From the NCBI GenBank assembly GCA_015257795.3, contig CP072208.2, positions 270,001 to 302,000 of the forward strand: a DNA stretch of 32,000 bases, given 5' to 3'. The notes beneath the pieces were generated by a model, which saw nothing but the letters and a program-made list of their open reading frames with translations, was not told the origin of the DNA and did no database searches. Source of the stretch: Candidatus Nanogingivalaceae bacterium. GTDB lineage: Bacteria > Patescibacteriota > Saccharimonadia > Saccharimonadales > Saccharimonadaceae. Below, piece after piece: positions 1 to 32,000 of this stretch (positions are counted from its first letter, which is position 1; every line of letters begins with the position of its first letter). Both the position numbers and the translations under genes were made by a program.

Positions 1-26
1 ATCAAGTCGGCTTTTTTCTTTGCCAT
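1..26 (-). CDS. 5' end of an unidentified gene leaving the window (MAKKKADL...)
   Basis: ATG at 26..24 on the minus strand with AAAGGA a few nt upstream and a consensus promoter at 87..115. Only 8 codons are visible. Confidence 0.3.
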
Positions 27-86
27 TTCTATCCTTTCTGTGGTAATAGCGGCTTGCGCCTCCCAACATTGATTATTAACCTTTTA

Positions 87-115
87 ATTATAACAATTTT
101 TTGAGAAAAAGTCAA
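87..115 (-). promoter_or_regulatory. sigma70-type promoter for the left-edge gene
   Basis: Minus strand TTGACT (115..110), 17 nt spacer, TATAAT (92..87), with TGT immediately upstream of the -10 (extended -10). Confidence 0.5.
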
Positions 116-117
116 AA

Positions 118-2124
118 CTAAATTTTATTGCTAGAAAGAGTTTTGTTTTCGCTAGAACTCATTTTGACGTAATACGCCAATAAACTTATAACACCAAAAA
201 TTAAACCAAAAATAATCAAACTAAAGATGGAACTTTCAAAAATTGGTTGAGATAATCCGCCTAATATTGCTTGTCTGAAAGCGGTTAGCGAATAGTAAAG
301 CGGCATAAATGGCGCCATGTTTTGAAAAATTTGAGGTGTTGTCGCAATCGGGAACATTCCCCCGCTACTTGCAAGCTGTAAAATCATGAAAACAATTGAA
401 GCAAACTGGCCAACTCTGCCGAAAGCAAACATTAATGCATGAACAATCAAAAGGAATGAAAATGCCGAAACATAAGAACTCAAAACAAAAGAATTTATAT
501 CCGCAGGTGAAATGTTAAATATTCCGCTAAAAATAATTGTAAGAACTAGAGTTTCAGCTCCGGCAAAGCCAGCCATAATCCCTACCCTTGAAAGCCACCA
601 TTTAAGTGCTGAACAATTCTTTTTTGGCTTATTTTGGATCGGAAACGCAATATTAAACGAAATCGCCCCAACAAACAAACCTAATGCGATGAAATATGGA
701 GCCATCGCTTTTCCGTATGTTGCATCTCCAGAATTATTTGAAACTTCACTTTTAACTGGCGTTGCGATATTTTTAGCAGATTCATCCGAGAAATTAATTT
801 TCGAAAGTTTTTCTGCACCAGATGAAAGTTGTGAAGTTAATAGATTCGAGCCATCTTGTAGTTTTGTGGTGCCGGAATTTATTGTGTTTATTCCTGAATT
901 TAAAGTGTTAATTCCGCCCAAAAGTTGAGCTGTACTTTCAGGGATTTTTTGTTCACTGGTGTTAAATTCGTTCATTTTTGTTGAGAAAGTTGTAACTCCA
1001 GTTGAAAGCTGTTTTTCGCCCGATAGAAGTAAGTTGTGTGAATTTTGTATTTTGCGTGAATTTTGCGCCAAGCTTTGTGCGGCTGGAACAATTTTTTGCG
1101 AAAATTGCGTTTGCAAGTTTTGCGATTTTTTAGCATTTTTTTGGGCGTCAGCGGTAATATTTTTTGCCGAAATCGCCAACTCATCGGCAAGATTTTTAAT
1201 ATTCTGATTATTAGTTTGTTCAGCTAAAATGTGCATTTTTGCCACTTTTTGATTTAATTCCAATAAGTGTTCACTTTGATTTTTTGCATCAGAATTATCG
1301 CTTATCGCAGAATTTAGTGTGGTTAAACCATTCGAAAACTCTTCACTTTTGGCCGAAAAATCTTGTAATCCCTTTTGTAAGTTTTCGCTATTTTGGCTTA
1401 AAAGATTGGTTTTATTTGAAATTTCGGTTGCACTAAAAGCAAGTTTATTACTCGCTTCGGCCATTTTCTGGTTTGCTGAATTTAATTTTTCCGCGCCATT
1501 TTTTAGTTTTATAACTCCAGAATTTGCCGAATTTAAACTATTGCCTAAACTACTAATCCCGTTTGAAATTTGTTCTGAACCGCTCGCTGCTTTCGAAAAA
1601 CCGTTTTGAACATTCGAAAGTTGAGAAAGTAGAATCTTACTGTAGTTTTCACTAATTTGCGCTCGAACCTGTTCACTCAGTTTTTGTGCGGCGTTGGTTG
1701 AAATCATTTCACCAGATTTACTTTTCGAAACATTTGTTTTAAATGAAATATTCACTTTTTGCGGATTTTCTCCCAAAAAACTAACTGAATTTTTCGAAAA
1801 ATCTTTTGGAATATGTACAATCATGAAAGTGTCGCCATCGGTCAAATCTTTCTCGGCTGTTTTTAAATCCGTAAACTGCCAGTTTAAAGTTCTTGATTGC
1901 TTAAGGTTATTGCTAATTTTATTGCCAAGTTCAATATTTTGACCATTAAAAAGGACAGGTTCATCTTCATTTACTACTGATATCTTTAGGTTTTCGATTT
2001 TTGAATAAGGGTCCCAGATTGATGCCAAAAAAGTTCCAGCATAGATAACGGGAATAAAACTTACTATAAATAGAGTGGCTAGAAGCATACGATTTTGCTT
2101 TATTTTTCTAAAATATTTTTTCAT
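118..2124 (-). CDS. YhgE/Pip-family membrane protein (phage infection protein-like), 668 aa
   Basis: I prefer the ATG at 2124 (MKKYFRKIKQNR...) because GGAGGAAG lies just upstream. It has an N-terminal TM segment, an extracellular VVNEDEP-type region, a long Asn/Ser/Gln-rich coiled-coil repeat centre and a C-terminal 5-6 TM ABC-2-like domain. The track ORF extends to 2277 without an RBS. Confidence 0.75.
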   Translation of the reverse strand: MKKYFRKIKQNRMLLATLFIVSFIPVIYAGTFLASIWDPYSKIENLKISVVNEDEPVLFNGQNIELGNKISNNLKQSRTLNWQFTDLKTAEKDLTDGDTFMIVHIPKDFSKNSVSFLGENPQKVNISFKTNVSKSKSGEMISTNAAQKLSEQVRAQISENYSKILLSQLSNVQNGFSKAASGSEQISNGISSLGNSLNSANSGVIKLKNGAEKLNSANQKMAEASNKLAFSATEISNKTNLLSQNSENLQKGLQDFSAKSEEFSNGLTTLNSAISDNSDAKNQSEHLLELNQKVAKMHILAEQTNNQNIKNLADELAISAKNITADAQKNAKKSQNLQTQFSQKIVPAAQSLAQNSRKIQNSHNLLLSGEKQLSTGVTTFSTKMNEFNTSEQKIPESTAQLLGGINTLNSGINTINSGTTKLQDGSNLLTSQLSSGAEKLSKINFSDESAKNIATPVKSEVSNNSGDATYGKAMAPYFIALGLFVGAISFNIAFPIQNKPKKNCSALKWWLSRVGIMAGFAGAETLVLTIIFSGIFNISPADINSFVLSSYVSAFSFLLIVHALMFAFGRVGQFASIVFMILQLASSGGMFPIATTPQIFQNMAPFMPLYYSLTAFRQAILGGLSQPIFESSIFSLIIFGLIFGVISLLAYYVKMSSSENKTLSSNKI

Positions 2125-2174
2125 CTTCCTCCTAATAAAATAGTTGTATTTATCAACGATTACTCTATTGTATA

Positions 2175-2203
2175 AAATATTGTTGTAAAAGTCAACAATA
2201 TTT
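2175..2203. promoter_or_regulatory. 11-bp perfect inverted repeat, candidate MarR operator
   Basis: AAATATTGTTG (2175..2185), 7 nt spacer, CAACAATATTT (2193..2203). It overlaps the -35 and spacer of the marR-like promoter in the divergent intergenic region. Confidence 0.5.
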
Positions 2204-2211
2204 GGTATAAT
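2183..2211 (+). promoter_or_regulatory. promoter of the MarR-family gene, leaderless layout
   Basis: TTGTAA (2183..2188), 17 nt spacer, TATAAT (2206..2211), then only 6 nt to the ATG at 2218. No Shine-Dalgarno sequence. Confidence 0.5.
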
Positions 2212-2217
2212 TATTTT

Positions 2218-2962: not shown

Positions 2963-3940
2963 TCAATTAAAAATTTTATCACAGCAAGTAATGAGTTCAC
3001 GTAAGATTTCGTCATATTTCTCATAAACTCGAAAACCTGCCGCATAGGCATGTCCACCTCCACCGAAATAACCTGCAATATCCGCAGCGATTGGTGAATT
3101 TGTCCGAACTTTTCCGGTGAGTTTTCCATCCGGGTAGGTTTTTATTGCTACACAAGCTTCTACACCCTCAACCATTCGCATCTCATCGATAACTAAAACG
3201 CTAGGGTTATATTTATCAGAATACTCTTTAATTTCTTCCCAAGGGATATGTACTACTGCTAATTTTCTATCAAAAAAGTATTCAATTCGCTGAATTAATC
3301 GTCCTTTGTATTCTAGAATTTCAGGAGCTTTTTTAGATAATTCGCGACGTGATTCTTCTAGTTTAGCAGAACTTGCGCCGAGTTTTGTTAGTTCTCCAGC
3401 AACCTCAAAAGTTCGAGCTGAAGTGTTACTTGTTGAAAGTCCTAGGGTGTCGCTGAAAATTGCACCTAAAATATCTTGTGCAGCGGTTTGGTTTATTTTC
3501 CAATTAAGAGCGTTTGCGATTTCAAAAATAACCTCTCCAGTTGAGCTTGCTTCCTCTAGAACCAGTTCATGTTCGAATGTTATATCGGGTGTTGCATCAG
3601 TATGGTGATCAATCACTAAAACCGGAGTTTTTTCGAGTAGATTTTTATAAAGAGGGTCATCGACTATTTTCGAAAGCAATGTATTGCTTGTAGTGTCAAC
3701 AATTATGAAAAGATCAAATTTTTCATAAATCGAACTTTCTATTCTATCCCAACCGCTAAAATATCGTAAATATTTTGGAATATCTACAGGACAGAAAAGT
3801 TTAACACTTTTTCCGAGATCGCTCAAAATTTCTTCTAAAGCTAAAGCTGAGCCTAAACTATCACCGTCTGGATTTTCGGCTTGAATTACGCAAATTTTTT
3901 GTGAATTGTTTATTAATTTTCTTATGTTTTCGAATTTCAC
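2963..3940 (-). CDS. nrnA: DHH/DHHA1 phosphoesterase (NrnA-like oligoribonuclease/pAp phosphatase), 325 aa
   Basis: Motifs DGDSLGS, VIDHHTD and the C-terminal GGGHAYAAG (DHHA1). GTG start at 3940 overlaps the recR stop by 1 nt (TAGTG), with AGGAGA upstream. Confidence 0.8.
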   Translation of the reverse strand: MKFENIRKLINNSQKICVIQAENPDGDSLGSALALEEILSDLGKSVKLFCPVDIPKYLRYFSGWDRIESSIYEKFDLFIIVDTTSNTLLSKIVDDPLYKNLLEKTPVLVIDHHTDATPDITFEHELVLEEASSTGEVIFEIANALNWKINQTAAQDILGAIFSDTLGLSTSNTSARTFEVAGELTKLGASSAKLEESRRELSKKAPEILEYKGRLIQRIEYFFDRKLAVVHIPWEEIKEYSDKYNPSVLVIDEMRMVEGVEACVAIKTYPDGKLTGKVRTNSPIAADIAGYFGGGGHAYAAGFRVYEKYDEILRELITCCDKIFN

Positions 3941-4557: not shown

Positions 4558-4576
4558 TTTTCCCTTTCGAAGAAAA

Positions 4577-4938: not shown

Positions 4939-6362
4939 CTACGCGTTAAAACATAAAAACGATCAGAATTATCTTTACGGTTTGAAACCAAAATCTTTTT
5001 TACGTGGTATTTGTCTGAAATGTTTGTAGTTTTATAGGCTTCTTTCGAAACTACGATTTCGTTATCTTCGGCTGTATCTTTAACTTTAGCTTTACCCTGC
5101 CTCTCAAGAACTTTATAAAAATCTTCTTCATTTTTCGAGACTACCAAAATTCGGTTTGAATCAGTTTTTGTTAGAAGGATGTCTAGGTCCTGATTGAAAG
5201 CTGAAAGGATTTGTGGTGAGTATTGGTAACTCAAAGCGAAAACTGAGAGGTTTGTAATTAATAAATTAAAGACAAAAATTGAAGTTGGAATCAAACCAAA
5301 GAAACGTGCATAAGGGTTCTTTGGGAATAGTGCGTACCAAGTATCAATTAATCCCTGAAGTCCAGTAATCGTTAAGATTAATATAGGAGTAAATAAAATA
5401 GTAATAGTTGCGGTATTTGTTAAACAGACAAAGGCTAGGATTATTGTCCATATACTAATTAGATAGCTTCTTGCAGAGTGTCGAGCTGTCAATGCAAAAT
5501 AGAGTCCGATTAGGATTAAGATTGCTGTTGCTGGATTTACTACTGGAGAAAGCATTCCATTACTAATTGGGTTTGAAAATCCAATTAGGGATAGGCCAAG
5601 ATTTTTAATGTTTTCAAAAAAATCTAGCTTATTAGGTATTCCAAAGATGATCTTTAATATCGAAAGATCTTTAAGGATTGAAAATAGTAGCGGTGTTGTA
5701 ATTATTAAGAAGAGTGAAACACCTAAAATCTTCTGCGATTTCGGTGTTCTTTTTATTGTAAAACGTAGGTGCGGATGTGTTAAAACCGTAATTAAAAACG
5801 CTAAAACAATATAAGAACTTAGAGGTGTATAAAAACTCAAACCCAAAATTGTAATCAGAATAAAAATTTGGCGCTTTTTTGGGGTTTCTAGGAATTTCAT
5901 TCCACTCCATATGAGTAAAATTGGGTAAAAAATATAAAGTATCTCGCTTGTACCATTCTGGGCAATAAAGAAAAATTGACTGGATGTAATTGCGATAATC
6001 GAAGCTAGGATTGATGCACGTTTCGAAAACCACATTCCTGAAATTTTAGTTATGAAGACAAGTGAAAGTAGCGAAATTATAATTGATGGCAATTTGATCG
6101 AAAAATTACTTAAGCCAAAAATATCGATACTGATTTTTTGTAGGAGACGATACGGTAAGTCTATAATATTTTTTGAAAAAATATTTGAGAAATCTAAATT
6201 TACTGCACTTTTTGTGTTTTCAATTTCACCTGCAGTTAAGCCGTTTGGTGTAATAAATAAAGTGTAAATAATTATAGCTAAATAGCCGAGAGATAAAATT
6301 CCGATTCCAATTTGGTAACGAAATTTATAAATCCAAAAATCACTAATTTTTAATTTTTTCAT
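4935..6362 (-). CDS. polytopic membrane protein, GT-C (ArnT/PMT, GT39-like) glycosyltransferase candidate, 475 aa
   Basis: About 11-12 predicted TM helices followed by a soluble C-terminal domain of about 90 aa. This topology is typical of GT-C enzymes. No motif is strong enough for a firm family call. Confidence 0.45.
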   Translation of the reverse strand: MKKLKISDFWIYKFRYQIGIGILSLGYLAIIIYTLFITPNGLTAGEIENTKSAVNLDFSNIFSKNIIDLPYRLLQKISIDIFGLSNFSIKLPSIIISLLSLVFITKISGMWFSKRASILASIIAITSSQFFFIAQNGTSEILYIFYPILLIWSGMKFLETPKKRQIFILITILGLSFYTPLSSYIVLAFLITVLTHPHLRFTIKRTPKSQKILGVSLFLIITTPLLFSILKDLSILKIIFGIPNKLDFFENIKNLGLSLIGFSNPISNGMLSPVVNPATAILILIGLYFALTARHSARSYLISIWTIILAFVCLTNTATITILFTPILILTITGLQGLIDTWYALFPKNPYARFFGLIPTSIFVFNLLITNLSVFALSYQYSPQILSAFNQDLDILLTKTDSNRILVVSKNEEDFYKVLERQGKAKVKDTAEDNEIVVSKEAYKTTNISDKYHVKKILVSNRKDNSDRFYVLTRS

Positions 6363-6395: not shown

Positions 6396-7280
6396 CTACT
6401 TTAAGCTCCATTTTTCGCCGCCATTATTTAATGCTAACCCTTTGAGCTCAAGCATTGTGATTGCTTGATTAAATTCACTAGCAGAAAGCTTCGTTTGTTT
6501 AATAATTGTGTCACTCGAAGTTGTACCGTTTTTCGAAAGAAATTCTAAAATTACATTCTCCTCACTGGTGTCGCCTTTGAAAAGTTGTGTTTGTTTTTCG
6601 AAGCGGTTGGGGATTAGAAAATCAAGTAAATCTTCTACTGAAGTTAGCGGGTTAGCGCCATTTTTAATCAGCTGGTTACATCCCGCAGAAAGCGGTGATG
6701 TTATATTTCCTGGAACGGCAAATATTTCTTTGCCTTGATCTAATGCATGGTTGGCGGTCGATAACGTCCCGCTTCTGGATGCGGCCTCAATAATAACGAC
6801 AGCATCCGCAAGACCGGATACTATCCTATTTCGTGCTAAAAACTGCCATGGTCTAGCTGGTGTATTGTTTGGGTATTCGCTTAATATCGCTCCATTTGTT
6901 TGAAGGATTTTTTGACCCAAGTCTTCATGAGAACGAGGATAGATTTTATCAACACTATTCGCAAGAACAGCGATAGTTTTTCCTCCAGAGTTGATCGCAG
7001 CTCTATGGGCAATAGAGTCAATGCCCAGAGCTAAACCACTAACAACTACGATACCATTTTTTGCACACTCGCTTGCAATTTTTGTAGCAATTTCGCGTCC
7101 GTATGCGCTTGGTTTGCGCGTTCCGACAATTGCTACAGTTTTTACTCTTTTTGTGGGTAGTTTACCTCGCATAAAAAGCTTTTTTGGAGGGTCTGGTATG
7201 TGTGGTAGATCTCTTAAATAATCATAGTCTGAAAGGTTTATTTGAAATATTTCCATAAAATTATAAAATAGTGTTGACAT
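6396..7280 (-). CDS. dprA: DNA-processing protein DprA (Smf), 294 aa
   Basis: Rossmann-like core VAIVGTRKPSAYG...VVSGLALGIDSIAHRAA...AVLANSVDKIYP..H..L. C-terminal winged-helix-like tail. The start is uncertain (ATG 7280 or ATG 7256). Confidence 0.85.
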   Translation of the reverse strand: MSTLFYNFMEIFQINLSDYDYLRDLPHIPDPPKKLFMRGKLPTKRVKTVAIVGTRKPSAYGREIATKIASECAKNGIVVVSGLALGIDSIAHRAAINSGGKTIAVLANSVDKIYPRSHEDLGQKILQTNGAILSEYPNNTPARPWQFLARNRIVSGLADAVVIIEAASRSGTLSTANHALDQGKEIFAVPGNITSPLSAGCNQLIKNGANPLTSVEDLLDFLIPNRFEKQTQLFKGDTSEENVILEFLSKNGTTSSDTIIKQTKLSASEFNQAITMLELKGLALNNGGEKWSLK

Positions 7281-9062: not shown

Positions 9063-9547
9063 GTATTTTTGCGGTTTAGTTGGTTTCTAAGGATATCTCG
9101 TGCCCAAAAAATAGTTTCGAGCTCTTCGCTATCATGCCACTCTTCCGTTCCAAAATCCAAATAATGCGCACTCGCCACTTCAACGTTATCGCTATAAATT
9201 GTCAGATGTTGATTACCCATCCCAAAATCACCTACATTAAGGTCGTGGCTTTCAATTTCATATCTTCCATCGGAATATAATTCATAGGTTTGATCATAGC
9301 CTCCGCCATTATGCGCTAAATCTGGGTTATAGCTTTCATTCAGCTGCTCTTCATCAATGAGAGCAAGATTTGATAAATCTAGATCATCTATTGCTCTTTT
9401 AACATTTTCCGGTGATGATTCTAATGCGAAATATTCGTTATAAGATGGTTGGTTTCGAAAACCTTTATTTGCATTAAACGCCCATTTGGCGTAAGCGTTA
9501 TCTAAAAGATATTGTTGAGTTTTTGATTTGTTTAAGTTTTTTTCCAT
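9047..9547 (-). CDS. acidic hypothetical protein, 166 aa
   Basis: Clean ORF with AAAGGA before the ATG and a promoter at 9609..9637. It is very Asp/Glu-rich with no TM or signal peptide. I recognise no family. Confidence 0.55.
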   Translation of the reverse strand: MEKNLNKSKTQQYLLDNAYAKWAFNANKGFRNQPSYNEYFALESSPENVKRAIDDLDLSNLALIDEEQLNESYNPDLAHNGGGYDQTYELYSDGRYEIESHDLNVGDFGMGNQHLTIYSDNVEVASAHYLDFGTEEWHDSEELETIFWARDILRNQLNRKNTKMEE

Positions 9548-9608
9548 AAGATTCCTTTGATGAGATTTTATAACCTTCGCCTAAAGTCATCTCAAACTCC
9601 AGGTTAAC

Positions 9609-9637: not shown

Positions 9638-9660
9638 TAGCTATAACATATTTTTACAAA

Positions 9661-9691: not shown

Positions 9692-9730
9692 CGAAAATCT
9701 TAAATTAGGTCGATTAGTTTTATATTAAAA

Positions 9731-23035: not shown

Positions 23036-24521
23036 CGATTTTTACCATTTCTCCACCCCCCATTAAATCCTGCACACTCGCAATCTCTGGATCATTGGCC
23101 GGTTTTGCAGTTTCAAAAACCTCAATAGCCCAGCCTCCTGCGTTAATTTTTTTCAATGCTTTTCCTATTGAAGCCTGCGCTTTTGCTTTTTCGAGTTGCT
23201 TTTTCTTAAAAGGAAAGCCCGTATAAATTTTAATTTTACCATTTTCGAAAGCGTAGCCAGATTGTTTTAAGATCGTCTGAATACCTTTATCTTCTTCATT
23301 GACGGCGTTGCAAAAATCTCCCCATTTGAATTCGCGAGCTTCACCTAAATCTTCATTTTCAAGCAAAATTTCGGTTGCTTCAACTTCTTTTTGTGGAGTT
23401 TTAGTTTTTGGAGTTTCGACTTCTTTTTCTTTAGGAGGCTCTTCATGCTTCATTTTTTCATTTGGCGGATTCTTGAAAGTTTCGTTTTTGGCTTTTGGTT
23501 GAGTTGTTGTTTTCTGCGCCTGAACGGGTTTTGGTGAAGATAAAATTTGTTGTTTTACTGGTGTAATTTGAGGTACAAAATCTGGTCGAATAAAAATCGA
23601 AAGAAGTTCCATTTCAATAAAGTTTGATTTTTCTGCTCGTGTGAGTGGAACTAATAATTGTGAAAGATACGGTTTTACACCAACATTTTCGGTAATAAAA
23701 TTTAAAAGCTGGCTAGCGAAATTTTTTAAATCTACGCCAGAATCCCGAATTCCTCGCACAATTTCAAGAACTTCGTTCGCATTTTGACTTTCGAAAGCTG
23801 AAATTAAGGCGTTAATCTGTGTTTTTGATGCCAGACCGAGGGTTTCTTCAAGTAGTTTTGCTGTAATTTCTTCACCATCCTTCGAAATGCTTGAGATTTG
23901 ATCAAGCAAAGAAATGCTATCACGAAAACTGCCTTCACCACGCTCAGCGATAATTTCAATCGCTTCTTTCGAAATTTTGATTTTTTCGTTTTTAGCGATA
24001 AATTCTAGATGTTTGCAAACATCTTCCTTTGAAATAAATCGGAAAACGAAACGTTGTGTTCGGCTAATAATTGTGGCTGGCAATTTATGGGCATCGGTTG
24101 TGGCTAAGATAAAAACAGCGTGTTCTGGCGGTTCTTCGAGTGTTTTAAGTAAAGCATTAAAAGCAGCTTTTGAAAGCATATGAACTTCATCGATAATATA
24201 AACACGGTATTTAGCAGAAAAAGGTGCAATTTGTACATTGTCGCGAAGCTGGCGAATATCATCAACACCGTTATTGCTGGCGGCATCAATCTCAATAATA
24301 TCTGGGTGATTTTCTTCTTCTGAATATGGTAGATTGTTAATCTCATGTGCTAAAATTCGGGCAATCGAAGTTTTACCAACCCCGCGTGGACCTGTAAAAA
24401 GATATGCGTGAGCAATTCTGTTTTGCTTTAGGGCACTTTCAAGAACGGTTGTGATGTGGTTTTGCCCTACAACCTCGCTTAATTTTTTACTACGATATTT
24501 TCTATATAATGCCTTGCTCAT
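23028..24521 (-). CDS. dnaX: DNA polymerase III subunit gamma/tau, 497 aa
   Basis: YRKYRSKKLSEVVGQ, Walker A GPRGVGKTS, DEVHMLS, SRTQRF. Pro/Lys/Glu-rich linker and a C-terminal domain. It overlaps dnaB by 8 nt (ATGAATAA). Confidence 0.9.
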   Translation of the reverse strand: MSKALYRKYRSKKLSEVVGQNHITTVLESALKQNRIAHAYLFTGPRGVGKTSIARILAHEINNLPYSEEENHPDIIEIDAASNNGVDDIRQLRDNVQIAPFSAKYRVYIIDEVHMLSKAAFNALLKTLEEPPEHAVFILATTDAHKLPATIISRTQRFVFRFISKEDVCKHLEFIAKNEKIKISKEAIEIIAERGEGSFRDSISLLDQISSISKDGEEITAKLLEETLGLASKTQINALISAFESQNANEVLEIVRGIRDSGVDLKNFASQLLNFITENVGVKPYLSQLLVPLTRAEKSNFIEMELLSIFIRPDFVPQITPVKQQILSSPKPVQAQKTTTQPKAKNETFKNPPNEKMKHEEPPKEKEVETPKTKTPQKEVEATEILLENEDLGEAREFKWGDFCNAVNEEDKGIQTILKQSGYAFENGKIKIYTGFPFKKKQLEKAKAQASIGKALKKINAGGWAIEVFETAKPANDPEIASVQDLMGGGEMVKIDE

Positions 24522-24558: not shown

Positions 24559-25477
24559 ACAAGCTCGTTTGTCGTTTTGGTAATTCTAGCTCGATATTTT
24601 CTGGTAAAAACTTAATTTTATAACCTATAAATTTTCGAAGCGGTAAAGCAATAATCTCATTTTGCTGTTCGGCTAGTAATATGTATCCGATCTGGGCTTT
24701 TAGAATCCCTGAAAAAATTAGAAAATTGTCACTTTGAACGCAATCTGTAGCCAGAATAACTTCTTTAGGTAGAAAACTATTATCTTTCATGTAAAATTTA
24801 TCTAAATTTAACGGCTGGTTTTTTTCGAAATTCACTTTTTGAATTTGTTCAATTTTTTCCCGTGCAGCAAGGAGTTTCTTTTCGGCTATTTTAAAATCGA
24901 ACTTTCGTTCAAGCGTTTTTAGTTTTCCGCTTGCTTTTACGTTTTCGCAAAAATCTGGCATTTTTGAAATTTTTTCTTCATAACTACGAGCGATATTGGC
25001 GCTGGAAAATTCGCCCAGAATTAACGCCGCGCGAGCGCCTTGTTCAAGTAATCTAGCAATACCTCGCCCAGAAAAGCTGATGCCAACTTTAATTATTTCG
25101 TCCGAAAAATAGGCCAGATAAACAAAATGCGGTTGCAAATTTCGAATTTGTTGTTGTGAAGAAACCTCGCTCGAATCTACGTTATAAAAAGCAGGGTTAA
25201 AGCCTGTACGTTGCTGGCATTTTGGGCATTGAGTATATTTTTTCTCAAGAATAATTTTATCTGGACAGATGAAATCTTCACCAGTCTCTAAGTTGTGCCA
25301 GCCAATGCAGAAGCGCTGCGAAAGATCAATTTTTATGGTGAGTTTTTCTTCAAAATTTGGTGAAAAATTTAATATTTCTTCGGATTTTAAGTCTGCTAAC
25401 TTCCAGCGTGGATTCTGACATTTATCAAAATCCACGCGTGTTAAAATGAATTGTTTATCTAGAAATAGATTATTCAT
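24548..25477 (-). CDS. hypothetical protein with Cys-rich zinc-ribbon-like segment and a T5orf172/GIY-YIG-like core (possibly DUF2797-type), 309 aa
   Basis: The motif C..WH......FIC followed 14 residues later by CPKC resembles a Zn-ribbon. It is followed by HFVYLAYFSDEIIKVGISFSGRGIARLLEQGA. The family assignment is from memory only. It overlaps the upstream gene by 8 nt (ATGAATAA). Confidence 0.6.
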   Translation of the reverse strand: MNNLFLDKQFILTRVDFDKCQNPRWKLADLKSEEILNFSPNFEEKLTIKIDLSQRFCIGWHNLETGEDFICPDKIILEKKYTQCPKCQQRTGFNPAFYNVDSSEVSSQQQIRNLQPHFVYLAYFSDEIIKVGISFSGRGIARLLEQGARAALILGEFSSANIARSYEEKISKMPDFCENVKASGKLKTLERKFDFKIAEKKLLAAREKIEQIQKVNFEKNQPLNLDKFYMKDNSFLPKEVILATDCVQSDNFLIFSGILKAQIGYILLAEQQNEIIALPLRKFIGYKIKFLPENIELELPKRQTSLFDF

Positions 25478-27776
25478 TGATATTGATTTTAGCTTTTTCG
25501 AATTTCAAAGCTATTATAATTGAAAGTGTTGTTAGTCCAGCAGCTCCCAGTAAGCACAGTGTCGTAATAATATATCCGTTAACTCCTGTGTTTGGAGCTG
25601 AAAGGTGTTTTGCGCCATTACTATTTTCAGCATTTTTATCTGCTTTTGATGTAGCGGCATTATTAGCTGGAGCTGGTGTATTTTGAGGAGCATTTGGTGC
25701 GGCTGGCACATTTGTATTTGCTCCTGTGTTTGTAGAATTATTATTTGTACCTGTATTTGAATTATTTACTGGAGTTGGAGTTACAGGTGTAGGTGTAGGT
25801 GCTACAGGAGTAGGATTTACTGGAGTTGGAGTTACAGGTGTAGGTGTAGGTGTAGGTGTAGGTGTTACGGGTTGGTTTTGGTCTTTCTGAACAAGTTTAA
25901 TGTTATCAATATTGATAGCTGAATTGTAAGTATATAGACCTATTCGACCTTGATTTATTGGAGAATTATCAGTAACTGAAGCAAGCTTCTTTCCGTTTAC
26001 TGTAACTTCGAAAGTATTTCCTTTTCTTTCAATCTTAAAGTTTTTAGGTGAATTTGCTGGAAAGGCATCAGTTCCTGTTGCTAAAATTTCAGGATTATTT
26101 GGATTGCCGTTTCTTTTAGCTAAAACCCAACCGTTTTCACGAGGTGCCAAGTAGTAGAAGTGGTTGCTATCTGTATAATTCCAAACGATCCATTCTGTTT
26201 CCCAATTCTTTGGTGTTGCTGAAAGTTGTGTCAAAGAATTGATTGTGCCACTATAAGTAAAGTCTTTGTCTAGTGTTTTTCCGAGCATTAATGATGCTGA
26301 ATCTTGACCTGGTTTTGATGAAAGGTTTAGAGTTTTGTTTCCACCGTTTGAAGCAACAGACACATTACCGTAAACTAGTTCCCAATCGGCAAATTTTTTA
26401 CCATAATTAAATGTTGATCCGCTTGTGTAATTTTCGAAATTATCTTTTTGATCTTTTCCTGGAGTTGCAGGAGGAATAGAAATAGCCTGATCGCCTTTAG
26501 CTACTGGGCCAACAGTTGTGCTATCTATATTTTCTTCATGAGCAGCGTCGTCATCGTAATAAGCGTGAACTTTTACGGTTTTACCTAAGTAGTCTTCAAT
26601 TACTGGAAGGTTAGCAGAAGTGTTTCCGATAACTACTTGACCACCAACAGTCCAAGTATATTGAATTTTCGAAGAAGAAAGACCGTCTTTATCACTAACT
26701 TTTGCTGTAAGTGTTGAGCCAACTTTTGGATCGCCTTCAATAGTAACAGTACCCGTATTATTAGCTTGAATTGTTCCGTCTGTGATTTGAACAGGCGCAC
26801 TAATATGACTTTCAACTTTATTTGTATTGTCAACGTAAGTTATTCGAACGGTAACTGCTTTGCCCTTTTCGTTTGCAGTAGAAACGAATGTTGAATTTGT
26901 TGCCCCAGAAATATCTTGACCAGTTAATAACCACTGGTAACCAGTTATTTGTTTAACGCCGTCTTGGTCGTTAATTTTTGCTGTAAGTGTTGAACCGATT
27001 TTTGGATTTCCTTCAATAGAAGCAATTCCACCATTGTTTACCGTTCCTGTGATGTTTGCAGTATCATCAACAACAATATCGTCCGCAAGAACGCGTGCGT
27101 CTTCTGAATAGATTCCAACTCGACCGCTGTTGTAAGGATTTTCATTATCAACAACAGTTGCAATAGTTTGACCATTTATATCAACTTGAATAGTATTGTT
27201 CTTCTTGCTAATTTTGAAATCTTTAGTTGAAGCTAGAGGCCAGCTTTCGTTTCCGGTCGCCATAAACCTTTGACCATTTGTGTATTTTGGGTCACGTTTT
27301 CCTAATTCCCAACCGTTTGCACGAGCTACAAAATAATAGTAATGGTCGTTATCAGTGTGATTCCAAACTACCCATGCTGTTTCCCAGGCGTTTGGAGTTG
27401 CGCCAGTTCGAAGTTGCTCTTCGGTAGAAATTTTTCCGCTATACGTAAAGGTATCACCAACAGGACTTCCAACTACCATAATTGAAGAGGTGTCTGTTGG
27501 GCCAGTATGTGCTATTGGGGCGAGTTCTAGGGCGTTTCCAGCACCACCGTTTGGTACAATTTTTGCTTTTCCGTATCCGGTAAATAAGACGTTCCATTTA
27601 CCGAAAGAAGCGTTGTCTTTGTATTCTGCTCCTTGTGGATATGATGAAAAATCATCACTTTGAATTATTTGATTAACTTGTTTTGTCTTTTGCGTAGCGC
27701 TGATTGCAACAAAAGCACCAACACAAATTAAGCCACCTGTGGCTAATGATAAAATTACTTTTTTATGTAAGTTCAT
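25470..27776 (-). CDS. cell-wall-anchored surface protein: signal peptide, LamG/ConA-like domain, 2 Ig-like repeats, second LamG-like domain, Pro/Thr linker, LPXTG-like sorting signal; 768 aa
   Basis: ATG at 27776 with a GGAGGG RBS. Signal peptide MNLHKKVILSLATGGLICVGAFVAISA. Duplicated cores NAWETAWVVWNHTDNDHYYYFVARANGWELGKRDP and KNWETEWIVWNYTDSNHFYYLAPRENGWVLAKRNG. Ig-like repeats IEGNPKIGSTLTAK and IEGDPKVGSTLTAK. C-terminus has SAPNTG, a hydrophobic helix and KFEKAK. Confidence 0.8.
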   Translation of the reverse strand: MNLHKKVILSLATGGLICVGAFVAISATQKTKQVNQIIQSDDFSSYPQGAEYKDNASFGKWNVLFTGYGKAKIVPNGGAGNALELAPIAHTGPTDTSSIMVVGSPVGDTFTYSGKISTEEQLRTGATPNAWETAWVVWNHTDNDHYYYFVARANGWELGKRDPKYTNGQRFMATGNESWPLASTKDFKISKKNNTIQVDINGQTIATVVDNENPYNSGRVGIYSEDARVLADDIVVDDTANITGTVNNGGIASIEGNPKIGSTLTAKINDQDGVKQITGYQWLLTGQDISGATNSTFVSTANEKGKAVTVRITYVDNTNKVESHISAPVQITDGTIQANNTGTVTIEGDPKVGSTLTAKVSDKDGLSSSKIQYTWTVGGQVVIGNTSANLPVIEDYLGKTVKVHAYYDDDAAHEENIDSTTVGPVAKGDQAISIPPATPGKDQKDNFENYTSGSTFNYGKKFADWELVYGNVSVASNGGNKTLNLSSKPGQDSASLMLGKTLDKDFTYSGTINSLTQLSATPKNWETEWIVWNYTDSNHFYYLAPRENGWVLAKRNGNPNNPEILATGTDAFPANSPKNFKIERKGNTFEVTVNGKKLASVTDNSPINQGRIGLYTYNSAINIDNIKLVQKDQNQPVTPTPTPTPTPVTPTPVNPTPVAPTPTPVTPTPVNNSNTGTNNNSTNTGANTNVPAAPNAPQNTPAPANNAATSKADKNAENSNGAKHLSAPNTGVNGYIITTLCLLGAAGLTTLSIIIALKFEKAKININE
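25765..25866. repeat. tandem and microsatellite-like DNA repeats encoding the (P-T/V) linker
   Basis: The 37-nt unit TTTACTGGAGTTGGAGTTACAGGTGTAGGTGTAGGTG occurs at 25765..25801 and 25816..25852. A (GGTGTA)n run lies at about 25838..25866. Confidence 0.6.
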
Positions 27777-27843: not shown

Positions 27844-30800
27844 CTAGAAATCTTCTAAAATAGCCTTGGTTAGGGTGAAGATATGGGATGATCCTCTTTT
27901 TACCTTTTTATAGAGTGGCACTTCTTTCAGGTTATGAGATATCGCAAACTCTTTAACTAGCTGGTTTTCGAACTTCTTAATTCCTTTTAGGCTCTCTTCA
28001 GAGAATTTTGAAATATCATCGTCAAAATCGAATTTTTTAATTTTTTCGAAAACAGCTTGAATCAACAAATTAGTAAAATCTGCGCGCAATTTGTTTGCGG
28101 GAGTTTCGAAATCAATGGAATGGCTTGCAATATCACCATCTGCATTTGGCTGAACAAATTGTAATATTCCAGATTTAACTTTATAGCCAGAGAATTCTTT
28201 CGAGTTTTCGACCATAAATTTATAGAAAAATAGTTGCTGTTCGTATTTGTAAATTTTTGAATTTACAACAATTTTACTTCTATCTTTTGAATCCAAAGGT
28301 ATCGAACCTGTTTTCCAGTCTAAAATTGTAATCTCTTTATTGTTTTTATCGATAATTAGCAAATCAACAGTTCCAGTTAAGTGTGCATCTCCAAGCATAA
28401 TTCCCTTTGAGTGGAAATTTTCTTCTGCACGGTTTCCCTTTTGGAATAGTTCGCTTTTTGTTGAGAATATTTTTTCGACAGATTCAGCTGCGGTTTTTAA
28501 GATTTTTGTTCTGTCTTCATTTGTTAAAACGTATTTCGAAATATCCTTTTCGAGACCTCTAATAATGTTTTGACTATCGAAAAATCCGTTTTGATTTAGC
28601 TCATTTTGGGCTTTTCGAAAAGCGTTATGGGCTAAGTTTCCAGCAATGCTATTTATGGAGTATCCTTGCGGAAAGCGCAAAATTATATTCTCGAAAAAGT
28701 TAATAGGTCCGCCGTATTCGACATCTATAAAATTATTCAAGTGCGTGGCGCTAATTGCGTAATTTTCAAGACGATTCTTTAATAAGTCTCGCATTGAATC
28801 ATTTTTTGGTCTATAAAAATCATGCCAGCTGGTTTGAATGTCTAATTCTTTAGCGTCGTTTTCTTCAAGCTCAATTTTTTGGAATTTTTCAGGCAAAAAG
28901 CTAGCAACAAAGAATTTTTCGTCTTCCGTTTCTTTTTCGTGCTCGTCAAAGAATTCTAGCCGAGTATTTTTCTCGCCAGAAAAGCTCATCAAATGATTTG
29001 TCATATAGAGATGTGTTTTTGCGCGCGTAATTGCTACAAACAACAAACGCAATTTGGTATCTTTTCCTTCATCCGAGATTGGTATAAATTCAAGATTTTT
29101 TGGAAAACGAACGCTTTGAAAATTATTGCTTTTTCCGTTCCAAACTCGATTATTGGTATCAATCATGAAAACGTGCGAAAACTCCAAACCTTTCGCCTGA
29201 AAGGCTGTCATTAATTGAACTGCATCGTCAGTTGCTTTGTGAGGGTTTGTATTAATTATCCGCATTCCTGCGTTTTCATAATCTTTAGCAAATGCCGCAA
29301 GGTCTCGCAATGAATTTGAATGCTCTCGTGTGAATTCTCGCAAATTTTCGCGCAAAACAATCAAATTAGATAAAGTATCATAATAACTTTCATCAGAATC
29401 TTGGCTAAATAGTTTTCGAATTGGGCTTTCGAAAATTTCGCTAGCATCATGTTGGCTAGAATTCTCTACAATTTCTCCTTTTTTGAAGTTCCATTTTACG
29501 CTACCGAGCAGTATATCAAGGATAGACTCAAGGCTATAACTGTCAATTTTTTGAGATAATGAAATAATAAACTCTACAATTTGCGAAATATTTTTATCTT
29601 CACAAAACAGGCTTTCTGGGAGCCAAGAATTTACAGTTTCTCGCTTAGAGTTAATTTTCCAACTTAATTTCCAGATTTCAACAGGATTTAGTTTCCAGAA
29701 ATTAAAGCTTAGAATTTCAGGAAAAAGCGCATTTACTTTATCTAAGTCATTGTCTGAAATTGCAATAATAAGTTGTGAAATTTTAATTAGCGAACTAATA
29801 ATCTCGTCTTCAAAAATATTCTCTTTTTTCTCGTAGGAAACGGCTATTTCTTGGCGTTTTAAATATGGCGCAAGCATTTGTAAAGGGTTGTGTTTTGGCG
29901 CAAGCACGGCGATTTCTTTCGGACTAACTCCGGATTTTATTAAGTTTGAAATTTCATCCGCAATCCAGCCGAATTCTGAAATTTGACTCAAAAAATCTTT
30001 TCGAACAAGATAGGGACTTTCGAATTTAGAATCATCAAAAGCTTCAATATTTTTATCAATTCGTGTTGGTAAGTTTTCATTTAGTCTGCTTTCGATTTGT
30101 TCTGCAATATTTTTAGCAGAATATAAAATTTCACTTCTCGAACGGTAGTTTATTCTTAAATTAATAACTTTTGTATCTTTATAACGATGATAGAAATCGA
30201 GCATGTTTGAGCTTTTAGCGCCCTGAAAGGCCATAATTGCCTGGTCGTCATCACCAACAGCTAAAATATTTGGCCGACCATTAAAAATCTCATTGTCCGT
30301 GAGAAGTTCAACAAGTCTGCTTTGCGCGGCGTTAGTATCTTGATATTCATCCAAAAGAATAAATTGATATTTTTCTTGAAGCGACAATTTTAATTCTGTT
30401 TTTTGCTCGATAGTTTTAATTGTTTCGAGGATCATATCATTATAATCAAACATACCCTTATTATGTAGGGCTTCCTCATATTTTTTGTAAAAATCGGCAA
30501 ATTCTTGGATTTTTAAGTTCGTATAAAAATCTTTTGGTAAACGTCCTTTTTCGTTTTTTATTCCGAAAAAATCATTTCGAAAACTAGTGAAAGGTTTTGT
30601 TGAGAATTTTTCGGCATTTTTATTTTCTTCAAGAAGTTTTTCAAGCGCTTCGAAAGTGTAAAAAAGATTTGGCTTAACTTTTGGATGAGCTGGCGTTACA
30701 TCTTTTAGAACTTCGGCTAGCGCGATAAGGAGATTTTCATAAAATTCAGGAAAAACAGTTTTTTTAGAAATGCCTTTTTCTTCAAGCACAGAAAAATCGA

Positions 30801-31365
30801 TTTCTTCTTCGTCTAGTTTTTTGAGTAGTTTTTTATCCAATTCAACATTTTGTTTTGCAATTTTTGCTAGCATTTCAGGGGTAATTAACGCCTGTTTTGC
30901 ATGTGAAATTGCCGTTGTTAGGCTACTGATATTATCTTTTTTTAGGCGAGAGCTATCATCGAGATTGTTTTTTAAACTCTCTAAAATCTTAAAAATATTT
31001 AAATCATCGGCTAGGCTATCGAGGTCTTTATCTAGAAAATATTCACGATAATTATTGATAATTTCATTTGCAAAACCGTGATATGTGAAAATTCCAATTT
31101 TATACGAATCAGTTCCAATAAATTGCGAAAGACGCTCGCGCATATTTCGGGCACCAGCTTCCGTAAAAGTCATCGCTAGAATATTTTCCGGCGAAGTGTC
31201 GGTTTTTTGCAAAATGTTTGCAATGCGGGTTGAAAGCAATTGAGTCTTTCCCGTTCCTGGCCCCGCAATAACCAAAACTGGCCCCTCAATTGTGTCTACA
31301 GCCTTTTTTTGCTCGGGATTTAACATCTTATACTTTTTTTCGAAAATTTTCTGAAAATCGTTCAT
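27844..31365 (-). CDS. UvrD/PcrA/AddA-like SF1 helicase fused to a C-terminal PD-(D/E)xK (RecB-family) nuclease, 1173 aa
   Basis: Walker A VIAGPGTGKTQ, motif II ILLDEYQDTN, AVGDDDQAIMAFQGA, YRS, and late helicase motifs LMTAFQAKGLEFSHVF and LLFVAITRAK. Nuclease motifs are GTVDLLII, ILDWKTG and QQLFFYKFM. TATAAT (31377..31372) lies 6 nt before the ATG. Confidence 0.85.
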   Translation of the reverse strand: MNDFQKIFEKKYKMLNPEQKKAVDTIEGPVLVIAGPGTGKTQLLSTRIANILQKTDTSPENILAMTFTEAGARNMRERLSQFIGTDSYKIGIFTYHGFANEIINNYREYFLDKDLDSLADDLNIFKILESLKNNLDDSSRLKKDNISSLTTAISHAKQALITPEMLAKIAKQNVELDKKLLKKLDEEEIDFSVLEEKGISKKTVFPEFYENLLIALAEVLKDVTPAHPKVKPNLFYTFEALEKLLEENKNAEKFSTKPFTSFRNDFFGIKNEKGRLPKDFYTNLKIQEFADFYKKYEEALHNKGMFDYNDMILETIKTIEQKTELKLSLQEKYQFILLDEYQDTNAAQSRLVELLTDNEIFNGRPNILAVGDDDQAIMAFQGAKSSNMLDFYHRYKDTKVINLRINYRSRSEILYSAKNIAEQIESRLNENLPTRIDKNIEAFDDSKFESPYLVRKDFLSQISEFGWIADEISNLIKSGVSPKEIAVLAPKHNPLQMLAPYLKRQEIAVSYEKKENIFEDEIISSLIKISQLIIAISDNDLDKVNALFPEILSFNFWKLNPVEIWKLSWKINSKRETVNSWLPESLFCEDKNISQIVEFIISLSQKIDSYSLESILDILLGSVKWNFKKGEIVENSSQHDASEIFESPIRKLFSQDSDESYYDTLSNLIVLRENLREFTREHSNSLRDLAAFAKDYENAGMRIINTNPHKATDDAVQLMTAFQAKGLEFSHVFMIDTNNRVWNGKSNNFQSVRFPKNLEFIPISDEGKDTKLRLLFVAITRAKTHLYMTNHLMSFSGEKNTRLEFFDEHEKETEDEKFFVASFLPEKFQKIELEENDAKELDIQTSWHDFYRPKNDSMRDLLKNRLENYAISATHLNNFIDVEYGGPINFFENIILRFPQGYSINSIAGNLAHNAFRKAQNELNQNGFFDSQNIIRGLEKDISKYVLTNEDRTKILKTAAESVEKIFSTKSELFQKGNRAEENFHSKGIMLGDAHLTGTVDLLIIDKNNKEITILDWKTGSIPLDSKDRSKIVVNSKIYKYEQQLFFYKFMVENSKEFSGYKVKSGILQFVQPNADGDIASHSIDFETPANKLRADFTNLLIQAVFEKIKKFDFDDDISKFSEESLKGIKKFENQLVKEFAISHNLKEVPLYKKVKRGSSHIFTLTKAILEDF

Positions 31366-31392
31366 GGCTATATTATACTAAAAAAATAAGCT

Positions 31393-31418
31393 AAAAAAAA
31401 GAAGCTCGTTCGAGCTTC
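31393..31418 (-). terminator. rho-independent terminator after the 126-aa gene
   Basis: Minus strand GAAGCTC-GAAC-GAGCTTC followed by TTTTTTTT. Confidence 0.7.
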
Positions 31419-31426
31419 GAGAAGTT

Positions 31427-31807
31427 CTATTTGTGATTAAAGACATACTCCATCTTTTTAATAAAATTATTTAGGCTTTTGTTCGCCTCAAGGAATAGTG
31501 TTTTAGTATTAAAACTGTGTAGTTTTTGTTCAACACAGCGTTCGGTAAAAACATTGTTATCAAATGCTAGAACAACAACACGTTTATTCACTAAGATTTC
31601 CAGTTCTGAACTACTTCGTAAAGAAAGACCAAGTTCACTATCTGTGTATTCGATATCGAGCTCAAACTCAAGCTCACCATATTTATAAGTGGCCTTAATC
31701 TTAGATACTGGTTGTACTTCTTCCCGTGTAATTTTAAAACCAGATTTAATTTTAAAACCAGATTGTTCCAATAGCAACTTAATCGTTTTCGTGTCAAATT
31801 TTTTCAT
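31427..31807 (-). CDS. orphan hypothetical protein, 126 aa
   Basis: I prefer the ATG at 31807 (MKKFDTKTIK...) because AGGAGG lies 7 nt upstream. It contains an 18-nt tandem duplication (SGFKIK/SGFKIT). Confidence 0.55.
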   Translation of the reverse strand: MKKFDTKTIKLLLEQSGFKIKSGFKITREEVQPVSKIKATYKYGELEFELDIEYTDSELGLSLRSSSELEILVNKRVVVLAFDNNVFTERCVEQKLHSFNTKTLFLEANKSLNNFIKKMEYVFNHK

Positions 31808-31860
31808 AAAAACCTCCTGAAAAGTACTATAAAGTAAAATTATAACATTTAAAAGGCGAA

Positions 31861-31893
31861 AAAACAAGAAAAAACCCGATATAATATCGGGTT
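31861..31893 (-). terminator. rho-independent terminator after the right-edge gene
   Basis: Minus strand AACCCGATA-TTA-TATCGGGTT followed by TTTTCTTGTTTT. Confidence 0.7.
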
Positions 31894-31902
31894 AGGAATA
31901 AG

Positions 31903-32000
31903 TTAAAACTTGCGACAGTGTTTCTTGAATTCATTCTCGATATCATCAAAGAAATTATTCGCCATTTCTTTGCATTTTTTTAGCAAATCCGTTGTGGCTC
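31903..32000 (-). CDS. 3' end of an unidentified gene entering from the right edge (...ATTDLLKKCKEMANNFFDDIENEFKKHCRKF*)
   Basis: An open frame runs from the window edge to TAA at 31905..31903, followed by a good terminator. Only 32 codons are visible. Confidence 0.4.
   Translation of the reverse strand, partial: ATTDLLKKCKEMANNFFDDIENEFKKHCRKF

Follow-up and report, generated by a model that had tools for sequence, protein, structure and literature searches.

Why should a single CpG-centred palindrome recur through an A+T-rich chromosome, inside genes and between them, until it outnumbers every other octamer? The question is raised by a stretch of 32,000 bases from a Candidatus Nanogingivalaceae bacterium, here called the window, in which the octamer TTTCGAAA and its hexamer core TTCGAA are found throughout. 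Positions 11677-32000 of the window (20.3 kb compared) are 100% identical to CP076102.2, the 691,584-bp genome of strain JB003 of Saccharibacteria clade G6 (HMT-870, "Nanogingivalaceae") from human saliva (PMC8386444), and coordinate arithmetic places the window at about 269.9-301.9 kb of that genome. We find that the feature is real, strong and lineage-specific, and that some force creates copies of the palindrome and holds them against mutational loss. What this force might be is weighed below.

An over-represented palindrome and its lineage

Exact string counts over the whole window, in which two words were scored, yielded 79 copies of TTCGAA and 37 of TTTCGAAA, close to the roughly 75 and 35 counted by hand in a first-pass annotation of the same DNA. 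The octamer is the most frequent 8-mer of the window, none of the other TTTxyAAA words reaches more than 13 copies, and among the 64 palindromic hexamers TTCGAA is the sole outlier, with an observed/expected ratio (o/e) of 3.4 against 1.9 for the next best. A larger stretch around the window carries 69 octamers per 47.4 kb.

The size of the excess depends on the null model. With the base composition of the window (A 29.7, T 34.7, G 17.9 and C 17.7%), mononucleotide frequencies predict 10.8 TTCGAA and 1.1 TTTCGAAA, in agreement with the 7-fold and more than 30-fold enrichment proposed in the first-pass annotation, which had estimated G and C well, at about 18% each, but had taken A and T as equal, at about 32%. 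Fair nulls reduce these values to about 3-fold for the hexamer and 4-9-fold for the octamer. Dinucleotide-preserving shuffles of the window gave 23.0 +/- 4.7 hexamers (maximum 36) and 4.1 +/- 2.4 octamers (maximum 12), and synonymous-codon permutation of 30 open reading frames (ORFs) gave 26.6 +/- 4.4 (maximum 40) and 7.9 +/- 2.6 (maximum 18), compared with 71 and 33 observed in genes; codon-order permutation yielded 18.0 and 2.5. Independence of the two half-sites, calculated from the counts of TTCG, CGAA and CG, predicts 38.6 hexamers (z = 6.5) and 11.0 octamers, and TTCGAA is the only outlier in this test among all NNCGNN words. The excess holds under all four of these nulls. The annotation had named two outcomes that would overturn its claim, namely codon- or dinucleotide-preserving shuffles that match the observed count and a far lower recount; because the counts exceed both kinds of shuffle, the enrichment stands. 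Maximal-order Markov scoring, which it had also proposed, singled out no word, since the excess is shared out among nested words such as TTTCG and TCGA, and was replaced by half-site independence and the codon-aware shuffles, which the excess survives.

Within the window, 71 of the 79 hexamers are located in ORFs (2.6 per kb of coding against 1.7 per kb of non-coding DNA), where they are distributed over the codon phases as 26/21/24 and encode F-E, (L/I/V/F)-R-x or x-S-(K/N). Since all phases are hit, synonymous shuffles are exceeded and the half-sites are coupled, the enrichment acts on DNA, as the annotation had argued. The half-site coupling amounts to 2.05x, 1.81x and 2.05x for the hexamer and 3.47x, 3.47x and 3.69x for the octamer in the three motif-bearing species (the window, L001 and L002), whereas in sister lineages the hexamer value is only 0.3-0.9x. 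Given that the two halves are statistically coupled, it is the palindrome itself that accumulates. The sequence logo consists of a strict hexamer, preceded by T (-1) and followed by A (+1) in 69-70% of the copies, and a weak T/A preference at +/-2, with no signal further out. Longer palindromes do surround some copies exactly where they had been reported (GATTTTCGAAAATC at 9686-9699, GCTTTTCGAAAAGC at 28610-28623, and TCTTTCGAAAGA at 21121 and 22511). However, complementarity of the flanks beyond the octamer is no higher among the window copies than marginal base frequencies predict, so these 12-14-nt palindromes are chance extensions and not a feature of the motif. Spacing is Poisson-like over the short range (coefficient of variation, CV, 1.0-1.1; 47 kb contiguous), and even spacing of the copies was accordingly rejected.

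The motif is confined to few lineages. In a survey of DnaB neighbourhoods from 80 species-representative genomes, only two besides the window were enriched, namely L001, a Ca. Saccharimonas metagenome-assembled genome (MAG) with 67 TTCGAA and 36 octamers per 21 kb, and L002 (G+C 0.44), with 88 and 47 per 21 kb; no enrichment was found in nine other Saccharibacteria, including L007, or in about 65 other bacteria. Protein distances put the motif-less L007 inside the group of motif-bearing species. Elsewhere, the hexamer is mildly depleted (o/e ~0.65 in 78 control loci of the survey, hand sum). A second region, around XerD and about 200 kb away, was reached through the JB003 protein sequence in the supplement of the genome paper. 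It contains 43 TTCGAA and 20 octamers in 21 kb in the JB003 species; for the JB002 species the counts are 26 and 18 over 11 kb and 59 and 32 over 21 kb. The XerD region of two other G6-family lineages has no such pattern, and TTCGAA is not enriched in the L133 and L134 lineages. Genomes classed as motif-rich are CP076102 (JB003), CP072208 (JB001), CP076101 (JB002), CAURWT01, JAUMUX01 and ODKC01, while CAURWW01 (L007) and the L133 and L134 lineages are classed as motif-poor. TTTCGAAA heads the 8-mer counts of the window and of L001, L002, L136 and L139. The comparison with related genomes that the annotation had recommended thus shows a lineage-specific motif, which is present in L001 and L002 and missing from their sisters.

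Individual octamers of the window can be assigned to genes as follows. One copy lies in dprA (6531-6538), one in rplJ (10154-10161), one in the DUF167 gene (14088-14095, read as T-TTC-GAA-A and coding for F-E), two in tgt (14853-14860, TTT-CGA-AA; 15200-15207, TT-TCG-AAA), one in secE (20138-20145), three in dnaX (23243-23250, 23789-23796 and 23967-23974) and seven in an addA-like gene (28044-28051, 28104-28111, 28534-28541, 28613-28620, 29427-29434, 30575-30582 and 31338-31345). The histidine kinase gene holds five (20474-20481, 20528-20535, 20793-20800, 21123-21130 and 21225-21232) and, counting hexamers, 8 copies in 1338 nt, fewer than the approximately 10 in 1.2 kb attributed to it previously. 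The dnaB copy (22513-22520) is kept in L001 and L002 and reads CTTTGAGC in the motif-less L007. Non-coding copies are located directly beyond the rplL 3' end (9689-9696) and at 12469-12476; that at 16224-16231 lies outside the gene set, upstream of rplK, overlapped solely by an unsupported 102-aa ORF. The six octamers that the annotation had cited (9689, 12469, 16224, 14088, 14853 and 15200) are all correctly placed, and gene-coordinate arithmetic bears out the codon phases given for the last three. The remaining octamers are at 799-806, 1591-1598, 1723-1730, 1792-1799, 2297-2304, 3668-3675, 5043-5050, 6021-6028, 9453-9460, 14140-14147, 24823-24830 and 26432-26439.

Hexamer cores that lack the full octamer occur at 1331-1336, 1613-1618 (21 bp past the copy at 1592), 3572-3577, 3929-3934, 4566-4571, 6597-6602, 10524-10529, 11403-11408, 11804-11809, 12882-12887, 14276-14281, 14918-14923, 15536-15541, 15873-15878, 17837-17842, 17953-17958, 18010-18015, 18348-18353, 18371-18376, 18834-18839, 19554-19559, 20160-20165 (21 bp past the copy at 20139), 20948-20953, 21083-21088, 21167-21172, 22234-22239, 22465-22470, 23881-23886, 24634-24639, 25141-25146, 25497-25502, 26007-26012, 26668-26673, 26843-26848, 27407-27412, 27967-27972, 29415-29420, 30000-30005, 30019-30024 and 30649-30654. 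A further core, in rplK (16022-16027), is shared by all four of the lineages compared, and the one at 12237-12242 sits in the T-loop of a tRNA-Gln (12185-12259) and is accounted for by the tRNA itself. TTCGAA belongs to the common tRNA T-arm consensus, and a few copies per genome are therefore attributable to tRNAs alone.

Other words and other genomes gave side results. The prevalent G6-family species represented by L134 and L135 (G+C 0.33), which lacks the motif, has a moderate excess of CTATAG (23 vs 9.5) and TAGCTA (26 vs 13.6). In a scan of viral sequences, two viral-catalogue contigs, L118 (IMGVR_UViG_3300044959_000237) and L129 (IMGVR_UViG_3300020567_000331), reached 6-8 TTCGAA per kb. 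Both have a CpG o/e of 1.7-1.9 and are rich in the half-sites TTCG and CGAA without half-site coupling, and were rejected as instances of the same phenomenon for the lack of that coupling. They carry many overlapping ORFs on both strands, a sign of unusual composition or a different genetic code, and L118 contains a long 24/48-bp tandem array at 9178-11983.

Conservation between and within species

Are the copies retained, or merely abundant? Orthologous TTCGAA was found in L001 for 20 of 44 window copies, compared with an all-hexamer background of 24.6% (p = 0.002), and in L002 for 12 of 39, compared with 11.9% (p = 0.0014), but in the motif-less L007 for only 3 of 34. Codon-level conservation inside versus outside the motif follows the same trend, although the comparison is underpowered (TTC 0.69 vs 0.38, p = 0.04). 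Where Phe-Glu is conserved, TTTCGAAA stands in the three motif species at sites that in motif-less relatives read, for example, CTTTGAGC, so that whole octamers must have been built by several substitutions; they replace sequences that differ at 2-4 positions, amino-acid changes included. Across the three motif-bearing species, 255 of 567 synonymously permissive positions (~45%) carry TTCGAA.

Within the species, we compared the window with ten further JB003-species contigs, which are 94-99.4% identical; its DnaB and RecR proteins recur in 118 and 1,109 assembly blocks, respectively. From codon position, about 40 of the 468 motif nucleotides should be polymorphic, but only 21 are. The outer motif positions vary less than those of other WWCGWW sites (1.3% vs 3.9%), and the central CpG about as much (10.9% vs 9.6%). 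Most of the segregating motif sites (25/31) are exchanges between TTCGAA and TTTGAA or TTCAAA, and the minor allele is loss-like in 20 cases and gain-like in 10. Phe-Glu positions read TTC-GAA 26 times and TTT-GAA 12 times, even though Phe codons overall favour TTT (326 vs 142 TTC), and in phase-0 copies (TTC-GAA) the synonymous site is strongly protected, with 2 of 26 polymorphic compared with 8 of 19 TTC|G controls. The motif is also scarce in strain-variable islands of equal G+C, which contain 0.6-1.7 TTCGAA per kb and 1 octamer in ~13 kb; the corresponding core densities are 2.8 and 1.45 per kb.

A 5-methylcytosine footprint at the central CpG was considered and rejected. The 25/31 CpG transitions and a centre/outer polymorphism ratio of 8.5 (2.0-2.5 in controls) spoke for it; the contrast is nevertheless weak, given that the outer positions differ with p = 0.04, the centre behaves like that of other WWCGWW sites and the sole candidate enzyme, described below, is an amino-methyltransferase.

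One strain-variable, motif-poor hotspot lies in the window itself, at 10651-14076, between the DUF167/tgt genes and rplJ, where it splits the rplK-rplJ-rplL cluster. At this position, other strains carry SNase/ArfC, DnaJ or Phage_Mu_F-like genes. The rplA gene (L1, 356 aa) is located elsewhere, directly upstream of the window start (L090, 14530-15600).

Candidate forces behind the copies

Because its positions are kept between species, under-polymorphic within the species and scarce in variable islands, TTTCGAAA behaves like HIP1, the highly iterated palindrome (HIP) of cyanobacteria, and may be a functional counterpart of it. We tentatively favour, as a plausible reading short of a probable one, that TTTCGAAA is a lineage-specific HIP of clade-G6 Saccharibacteria, the target of an enzyme, and that copies marked by it gain an advantage in transformation, recombination or repair. 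The palindrome would be recognised by a putative dimeric enzyme, resident and sequence-specific, for which a DNA methyltransferase acting on TTCGAA is the most plausible candidate, and marked copies would have an advantage when DNA is taken up, recombined or repaired, on the assumption that these bacteria are naturally competent. The resulting molecular drive, possibly reinforced by selection, would build and maintain copies in opposition to their steady loss by CpG-to-TpG mutation. A palindrome is more in keeping with a dimeric enzyme or binding protein than with a classical oriented uptake sequence.

Published work offers precedents. In Synechococcus, methylated HIP1 raises natural transformation more than 100-fold (10.1101/2024.09.10.611283), HIP abundance follows cognate methyltransferases (PMC4390886), and that of HIP1 co-varies with DNA-transfer genes; uptake in Campylobacter requires methylated self DNA (PMC8468864). 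TTCGAA itself is a fully methylated type II motif in Sporosarcina, carrying N6-methyladenine (6mA) (PMC5930826), which is the product of the TTCGAA methyltransferases M.SspP37I and M.SspP33I (PMC5930826; 10.64898/2026.06.24.734251). The window encodes DprA, a prepilin-type protein, RecR and an AddA-like helicase-nuclease, as the first-pass annotation had recognised, and the same species has a type IV pilus operon with PilB/PilC-type genes, a prepilin peptidase and pilin genes. A narrower version, in which TTTCGAAA would serve as a methyl-marked label of self DNA and an uptake or recombination signal for natural transformation in a bacterium from the candidate phyla radiation (CPR), strikes us as possible but doubtful. 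If true, this signal would be the first of its kind in Patescibacteria and the second independently evolved HIP system, and, with the motif distributed patchily over sister species whose genomes measure 0.6-0.7 Mb, the responsible genes could be found by a simple comparison of presence and absence.

Several observations weigh against the enzyme-target reading. A TTCGAA-specific methyltransferase, for which the annotation had proposed a search, did not emerge, as the ~47 kb around the window encode no DNA methyltransferase at all; a methyltransferase motif search of all G6 DNA examined returned a single match, a false positive in a secreted protein. Window ORFs of unknown function had no relevant match in NCBIfam, the parts of the supplementary pangenome tables that we consulted list no DNA methyltransferase, and neither a methyltransferase nor a motif-binding protein could be tied to TTTCGAAA. 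In the literature searched, we found no methylation data for G6 genomes and no mention of the motif, methylation or restriction in them. Natural competence through ComEC has been demonstrated in Saccharibacteria for clade G1 only, not for G6 (PMC10187176). Phase-2 copies (T-TCG-AA) have an unprotected synonymous site, polymorphic in 11 of 24 cases compared with 19 of 61 other TCG codons. Conservation and low polymorphism fit selection and biased repair or conversion alike, and our counts cover about 7% of the JB003-species genome, plus the second, 21-kb region of the same species. To these should be added the conflicting features of the only candidate locus, discussed below.

The equal fit of biased repair leads to the first rival explanation, according to which the copies have no function and arise as a side effect of mismatch repair directed by methylation (Elhai's ratchet), or of short-patch repair, that fixes site-creating mutations. 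We regard this as unlikely. The ratchet has been proposed for HIP1 and alternate HIPs, the abundance of which follows the cognate methyltransferase (PMC4390886); it would account for outermost positions that are the least strict, as in HIP1 (T/A in 70% around a strict hexamer), and for a patchy distribution among sister species, as expected from gain and loss of an enzyme. On the other hand, it predicts saturation near 1 copy per kb and even coverage, whereas we observe 2.8 hexamers per kb with the CV given above. The neighbours TTTGAA and TTCAAA, expected to be depleted under a very-short-patch (VSP) repair or deamination signature, are not (0.89, 0.99 and 0.72 vs 1.02 and 0.66 in controls), and that signature was accordingly set aside. 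The replacement of sequences differing at 2-4 positions, amino-acid changes included, is likewise difficult to reconcile with the ratchet.

A second possibility, compatible with the enzyme-target reading but distinctly unlikely in our estimation, is that TTCGAA is marked by a type II restriction-modification locus situated close to XerD and the type IV pilus operon, which would be the cognate system. This locus occurs in several G6-family lineages, is flanked by glycosyltransferase and ThrRS genes, and consists of an amino-methyltransferase of the EcoRI-methylase family with an NPPF motif and a DUF262/HNH endonuclease (~9867-10813 in L139 and also L140, of the JB003 species; 10001-11026 in L136, of the JB002 species). 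Its distribution partly tracks the motif. The locus occupies one syntenic site in the JB003 species (L139 and L140) and the JB002 species (L136, L145 and L146), all motif-rich. The motif-less L134/L135 lineage lacks it, as does L133, and in L137 and L138, where motif density is intermediate, it is decayed. In L132, of a motif-less lineage, it lies on a 3.3-kb island (G+C 0.35) with 10 TTCGAA, while the remainder of the region is unenriched. The NPPF motif denotes an amino-methyltransferase, in line with the 6mA made by known TTCGAA enzymes (PMC5930826).

Nevertheless, the methyltransferase gene of the JB003 species is interrupted by a +1 frameshift (T6 to T7) in each of two independent assemblies, although its endonuclease partner is intact, which could reflect phase variation or decay. 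The C-terminal segment of the methyltransferase differs wholly between the two motif-rich species. In alignment columns 278-333 (L136, L145, L132, L139 and L142), a conserved core accompanies a lineage-specific C-terminal segment set between conserved anchors, which, judged from the sequence, looks like a swapped specificity module. The closest methyltransferase relatives outside G6, together with L138 and L132, reside in genomes that avoid TTTAAA, not TTCGAA (observed/expected in L208/L220, which form one contig, L201, L152, L138 and L132: 0/35, 0/21, 0/10, 0/9, 2/27 and 6/25), which suggests that this methyltransferase clade is DraI-like. Homologues at 60-66% identity (L141 and L142) belong to genomes without TTCGAA enrichment, the association with the motif is based on few independent contrasts, and an active endonuclease would be expected to disfavour the site it cuts. 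The frameshift, the variable C-terminus, the TTTAAA avoidance and the unenriched homologue genomes make the locus a lead and not a finding. Reading specificity from site avoidance in general was abandoned, since CTTAAG and TTCGAA are mildly depleted nearly everywhere, in both methyltransferase clades alike; in the loci of methyltransferase homologues, the o/e of TTCGAA is ~0.38 (hand sum). The avoidance of TTTAAA is the clearer of these signals, and it speaks against TTCGAA.

Could the motif instead be a classical DNA uptake sequence, read independently of methylation by a pilus-associated receptor and accumulating through uptake-biased recombination? A density of about 1-3 per kb in genes, in all frames, the poverty of variable islands, DprA and a prepilin gene in the window, the pilus operon of the species and the competence of Saccharibacteria (PMC10187176) are all consistent with such a role. 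Furthermore, the identity of conspecific contigs to the window changes between segments (L087, for example, goes from 98.3% to 99.9%), possibly as a result of recombination. We still consider this improbable. Known uptake sequences are oriented, non-palindromic 9-12-mers bound by a monomeric receptor, whereas here the palindrome itself is enriched; an 8-mer discriminates weakly in a genome of 64% A+T; and no receptor candidate is restricted to the motif-bearing lineages.

Very improbable, in our view, is that the motif serves chromosome organisation, either as the site of an abundant nucleoid-associated or regulatory protein or as a structural element of the DNA (a junction of T-tract, CG and A-tract). 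Dimeric binders suit palindromes, the window encodes a YbaB/EbfC nucleoid protein, and a role in chromosome structure has been proposed for HIP1 (PMC5861425). In addition, distances between copies peak near two helical turns and their multiples, with 16, 10 and 7 pairs at 21-23, 42-44 and 63-65 bp compared with ~2.8 expected per bin, as in the window pairs 1592/1613, 20139/20160, 18348/18371 and 30000/30019. The 21-bp phasing did not hold up, being only ~2.5-fold over a null of permissive amino-acid contexts and stemming in part from one 21-bp tandem repeat with the motif in every unit (L002, 9582-9666). Overall spacing is Poisson-like, YbaB is universal and not lineage-specific, and the densities in coding and non-coding DNA reveal no intergenic or promoter preference. 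The weakest explanation, a targetless context-dependent mutation bias or codon-pair preference for T-rich/CG/A-rich contexts, draws on the gradual growth of the excess via TTTCG and TCGA without a Markov outlier, a general over-representation of CpG in the window (o/e 1.23) and the two viral contigs, which are motif-dense by half-site richness alone, but pure mutation bias is already disfavoured and scarcely credible given half-sites coupled 2-3.7-fold in three species and not in sisters or viral contigs, an effect on all three codon phases that survives synonymous shuffling, the positional conservation and low polymorphism of the copies, and islands of equal G+C without the motif.

Comparison with known systems

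Among known classes of iterated words, two are readily set apart. Chi-like sequences are strand-oriented, non-palindromic and skewed with replication, while TTTCGAAA is a palindrome without orientation; repetitive extragenic palindromes (REP) and miniature inverted-repeat transposable elements (MITE) are extragenic, longer imperfect palindromes or hairpins with conserved flanks, in contrast to 71 of 79 copies in genes and flanks devoid of conservation. Restriction-enzyme sites are usually avoided in genomes. TTCGAA is the target of BstBI/AsuII isoschizomers, for which 6mA methyltransferases are known (PMC5930826; 10.64898/2026.06.24.734251), but in place of the avoidance normal for such targets it is enriched at least 3-fold (3.4-fold by o/e in the window), the opposite of the usual expectation, as had been noted in the first-pass annotation.

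The resemblance is closer to signals that identify self DNA. DNA uptake sequences (DUS) of Neisseria and uptake signal sequences (USS) of Pasteurellaceae share with TTTCGAAA a density of about 1 per kb, a location in genes, lineage specificity and scarcity in variable or acquired DNA, and their hosts, like the JB003 species, carry competence and pilus genes. However, DUS and USS have an orientation, are not palindromic, measure 9-12 nt and are recognised by a receptor independently of methylation, whereas TTTCGAAA is a perfect palindrome with no information beyond +/-4. The RAATTY motif of Campylobacter jejuni (CtsM) offers another likeness, in that a short, A+T-rich, symmetric motif could be a methyl-marked self tag, but RAATTY is degenerate, and in the literature found no hyper-iteration beyond composition is reported for it. 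If TTTCGAAA does mark self DNA, it would guide the design of DNA for the genetics of uncultivated Saccharibacteria. The existence of motif-bearing and motif-less close relatives with ~650-730 genes each makes the search for an enzyme or receptor practical, and the raw signal of the nanopore reads of JB001-3, if still available, should reveal the methylation state of the site.

The right analogue, already named in the first-pass annotation, is HIP1, which TTTCGAAA matches in octamer density, hexamer core, conservation and patchiness. HIPs of cyanobacteria occur at ~1 per kb in all frames, are conserved above controls and are linked to cognate methyltransferases (PMC4390886; PMC5861425). In HIP1 (GCGATCGC) and the alternate HIPs, as in TTTCGAAA, a palindromic octamer encloses a strict hexamer core between looser outer bases; HIP1 and TTTCGAAA are each the commonest 8-mer, with at least ~1 copy per kb, populate non-coding DNA and all frames of coding DNA, hold their positions above control words and are patchily distributed among related genomes. 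Unlike HIP1, TTTCGAAA is A+T-rich with a CpG centre, resides in the 0.69-Mb genome of an epibiotic CPR bacterium and has no methyltransferase tied to it among the G6 DNA examined. Its over-representation is 4-9-fold under fair nulls, compared with 15-300-fold for HIP1 (PMC5861425), and its spacing over 47 kb is Poisson-like at short range; quasi-periodicity on the kb scale is a trait of HIP1.

An unrelated palindrome widens the picture. In L069, an Ardenticatenaceae MAG (JACKBX010000009.1), ACGGCCGT occurs 37 times in a 21.3-kb locus against 0.4 expected and is the commonest 8-mer. As this is 1 of ~65 unrelated genomes, HIP-like palindromes may be sporadic or more widespread in bacteria, and may exceed the range implied by the cyanobacterial literature. 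Within the literature searched, there is no earlier report of the TTTCGAAA element, which is, after the cyanobacterial one, a second and independent case of highly iterated palindromes. The function of HIPs has been debated for 30 years, almost wholly on one motif in one phylum; the same kind of behaviour is now seen in ultra-small bacteria that depend on a host, and with a motif that is A+T-rich and unrelated.

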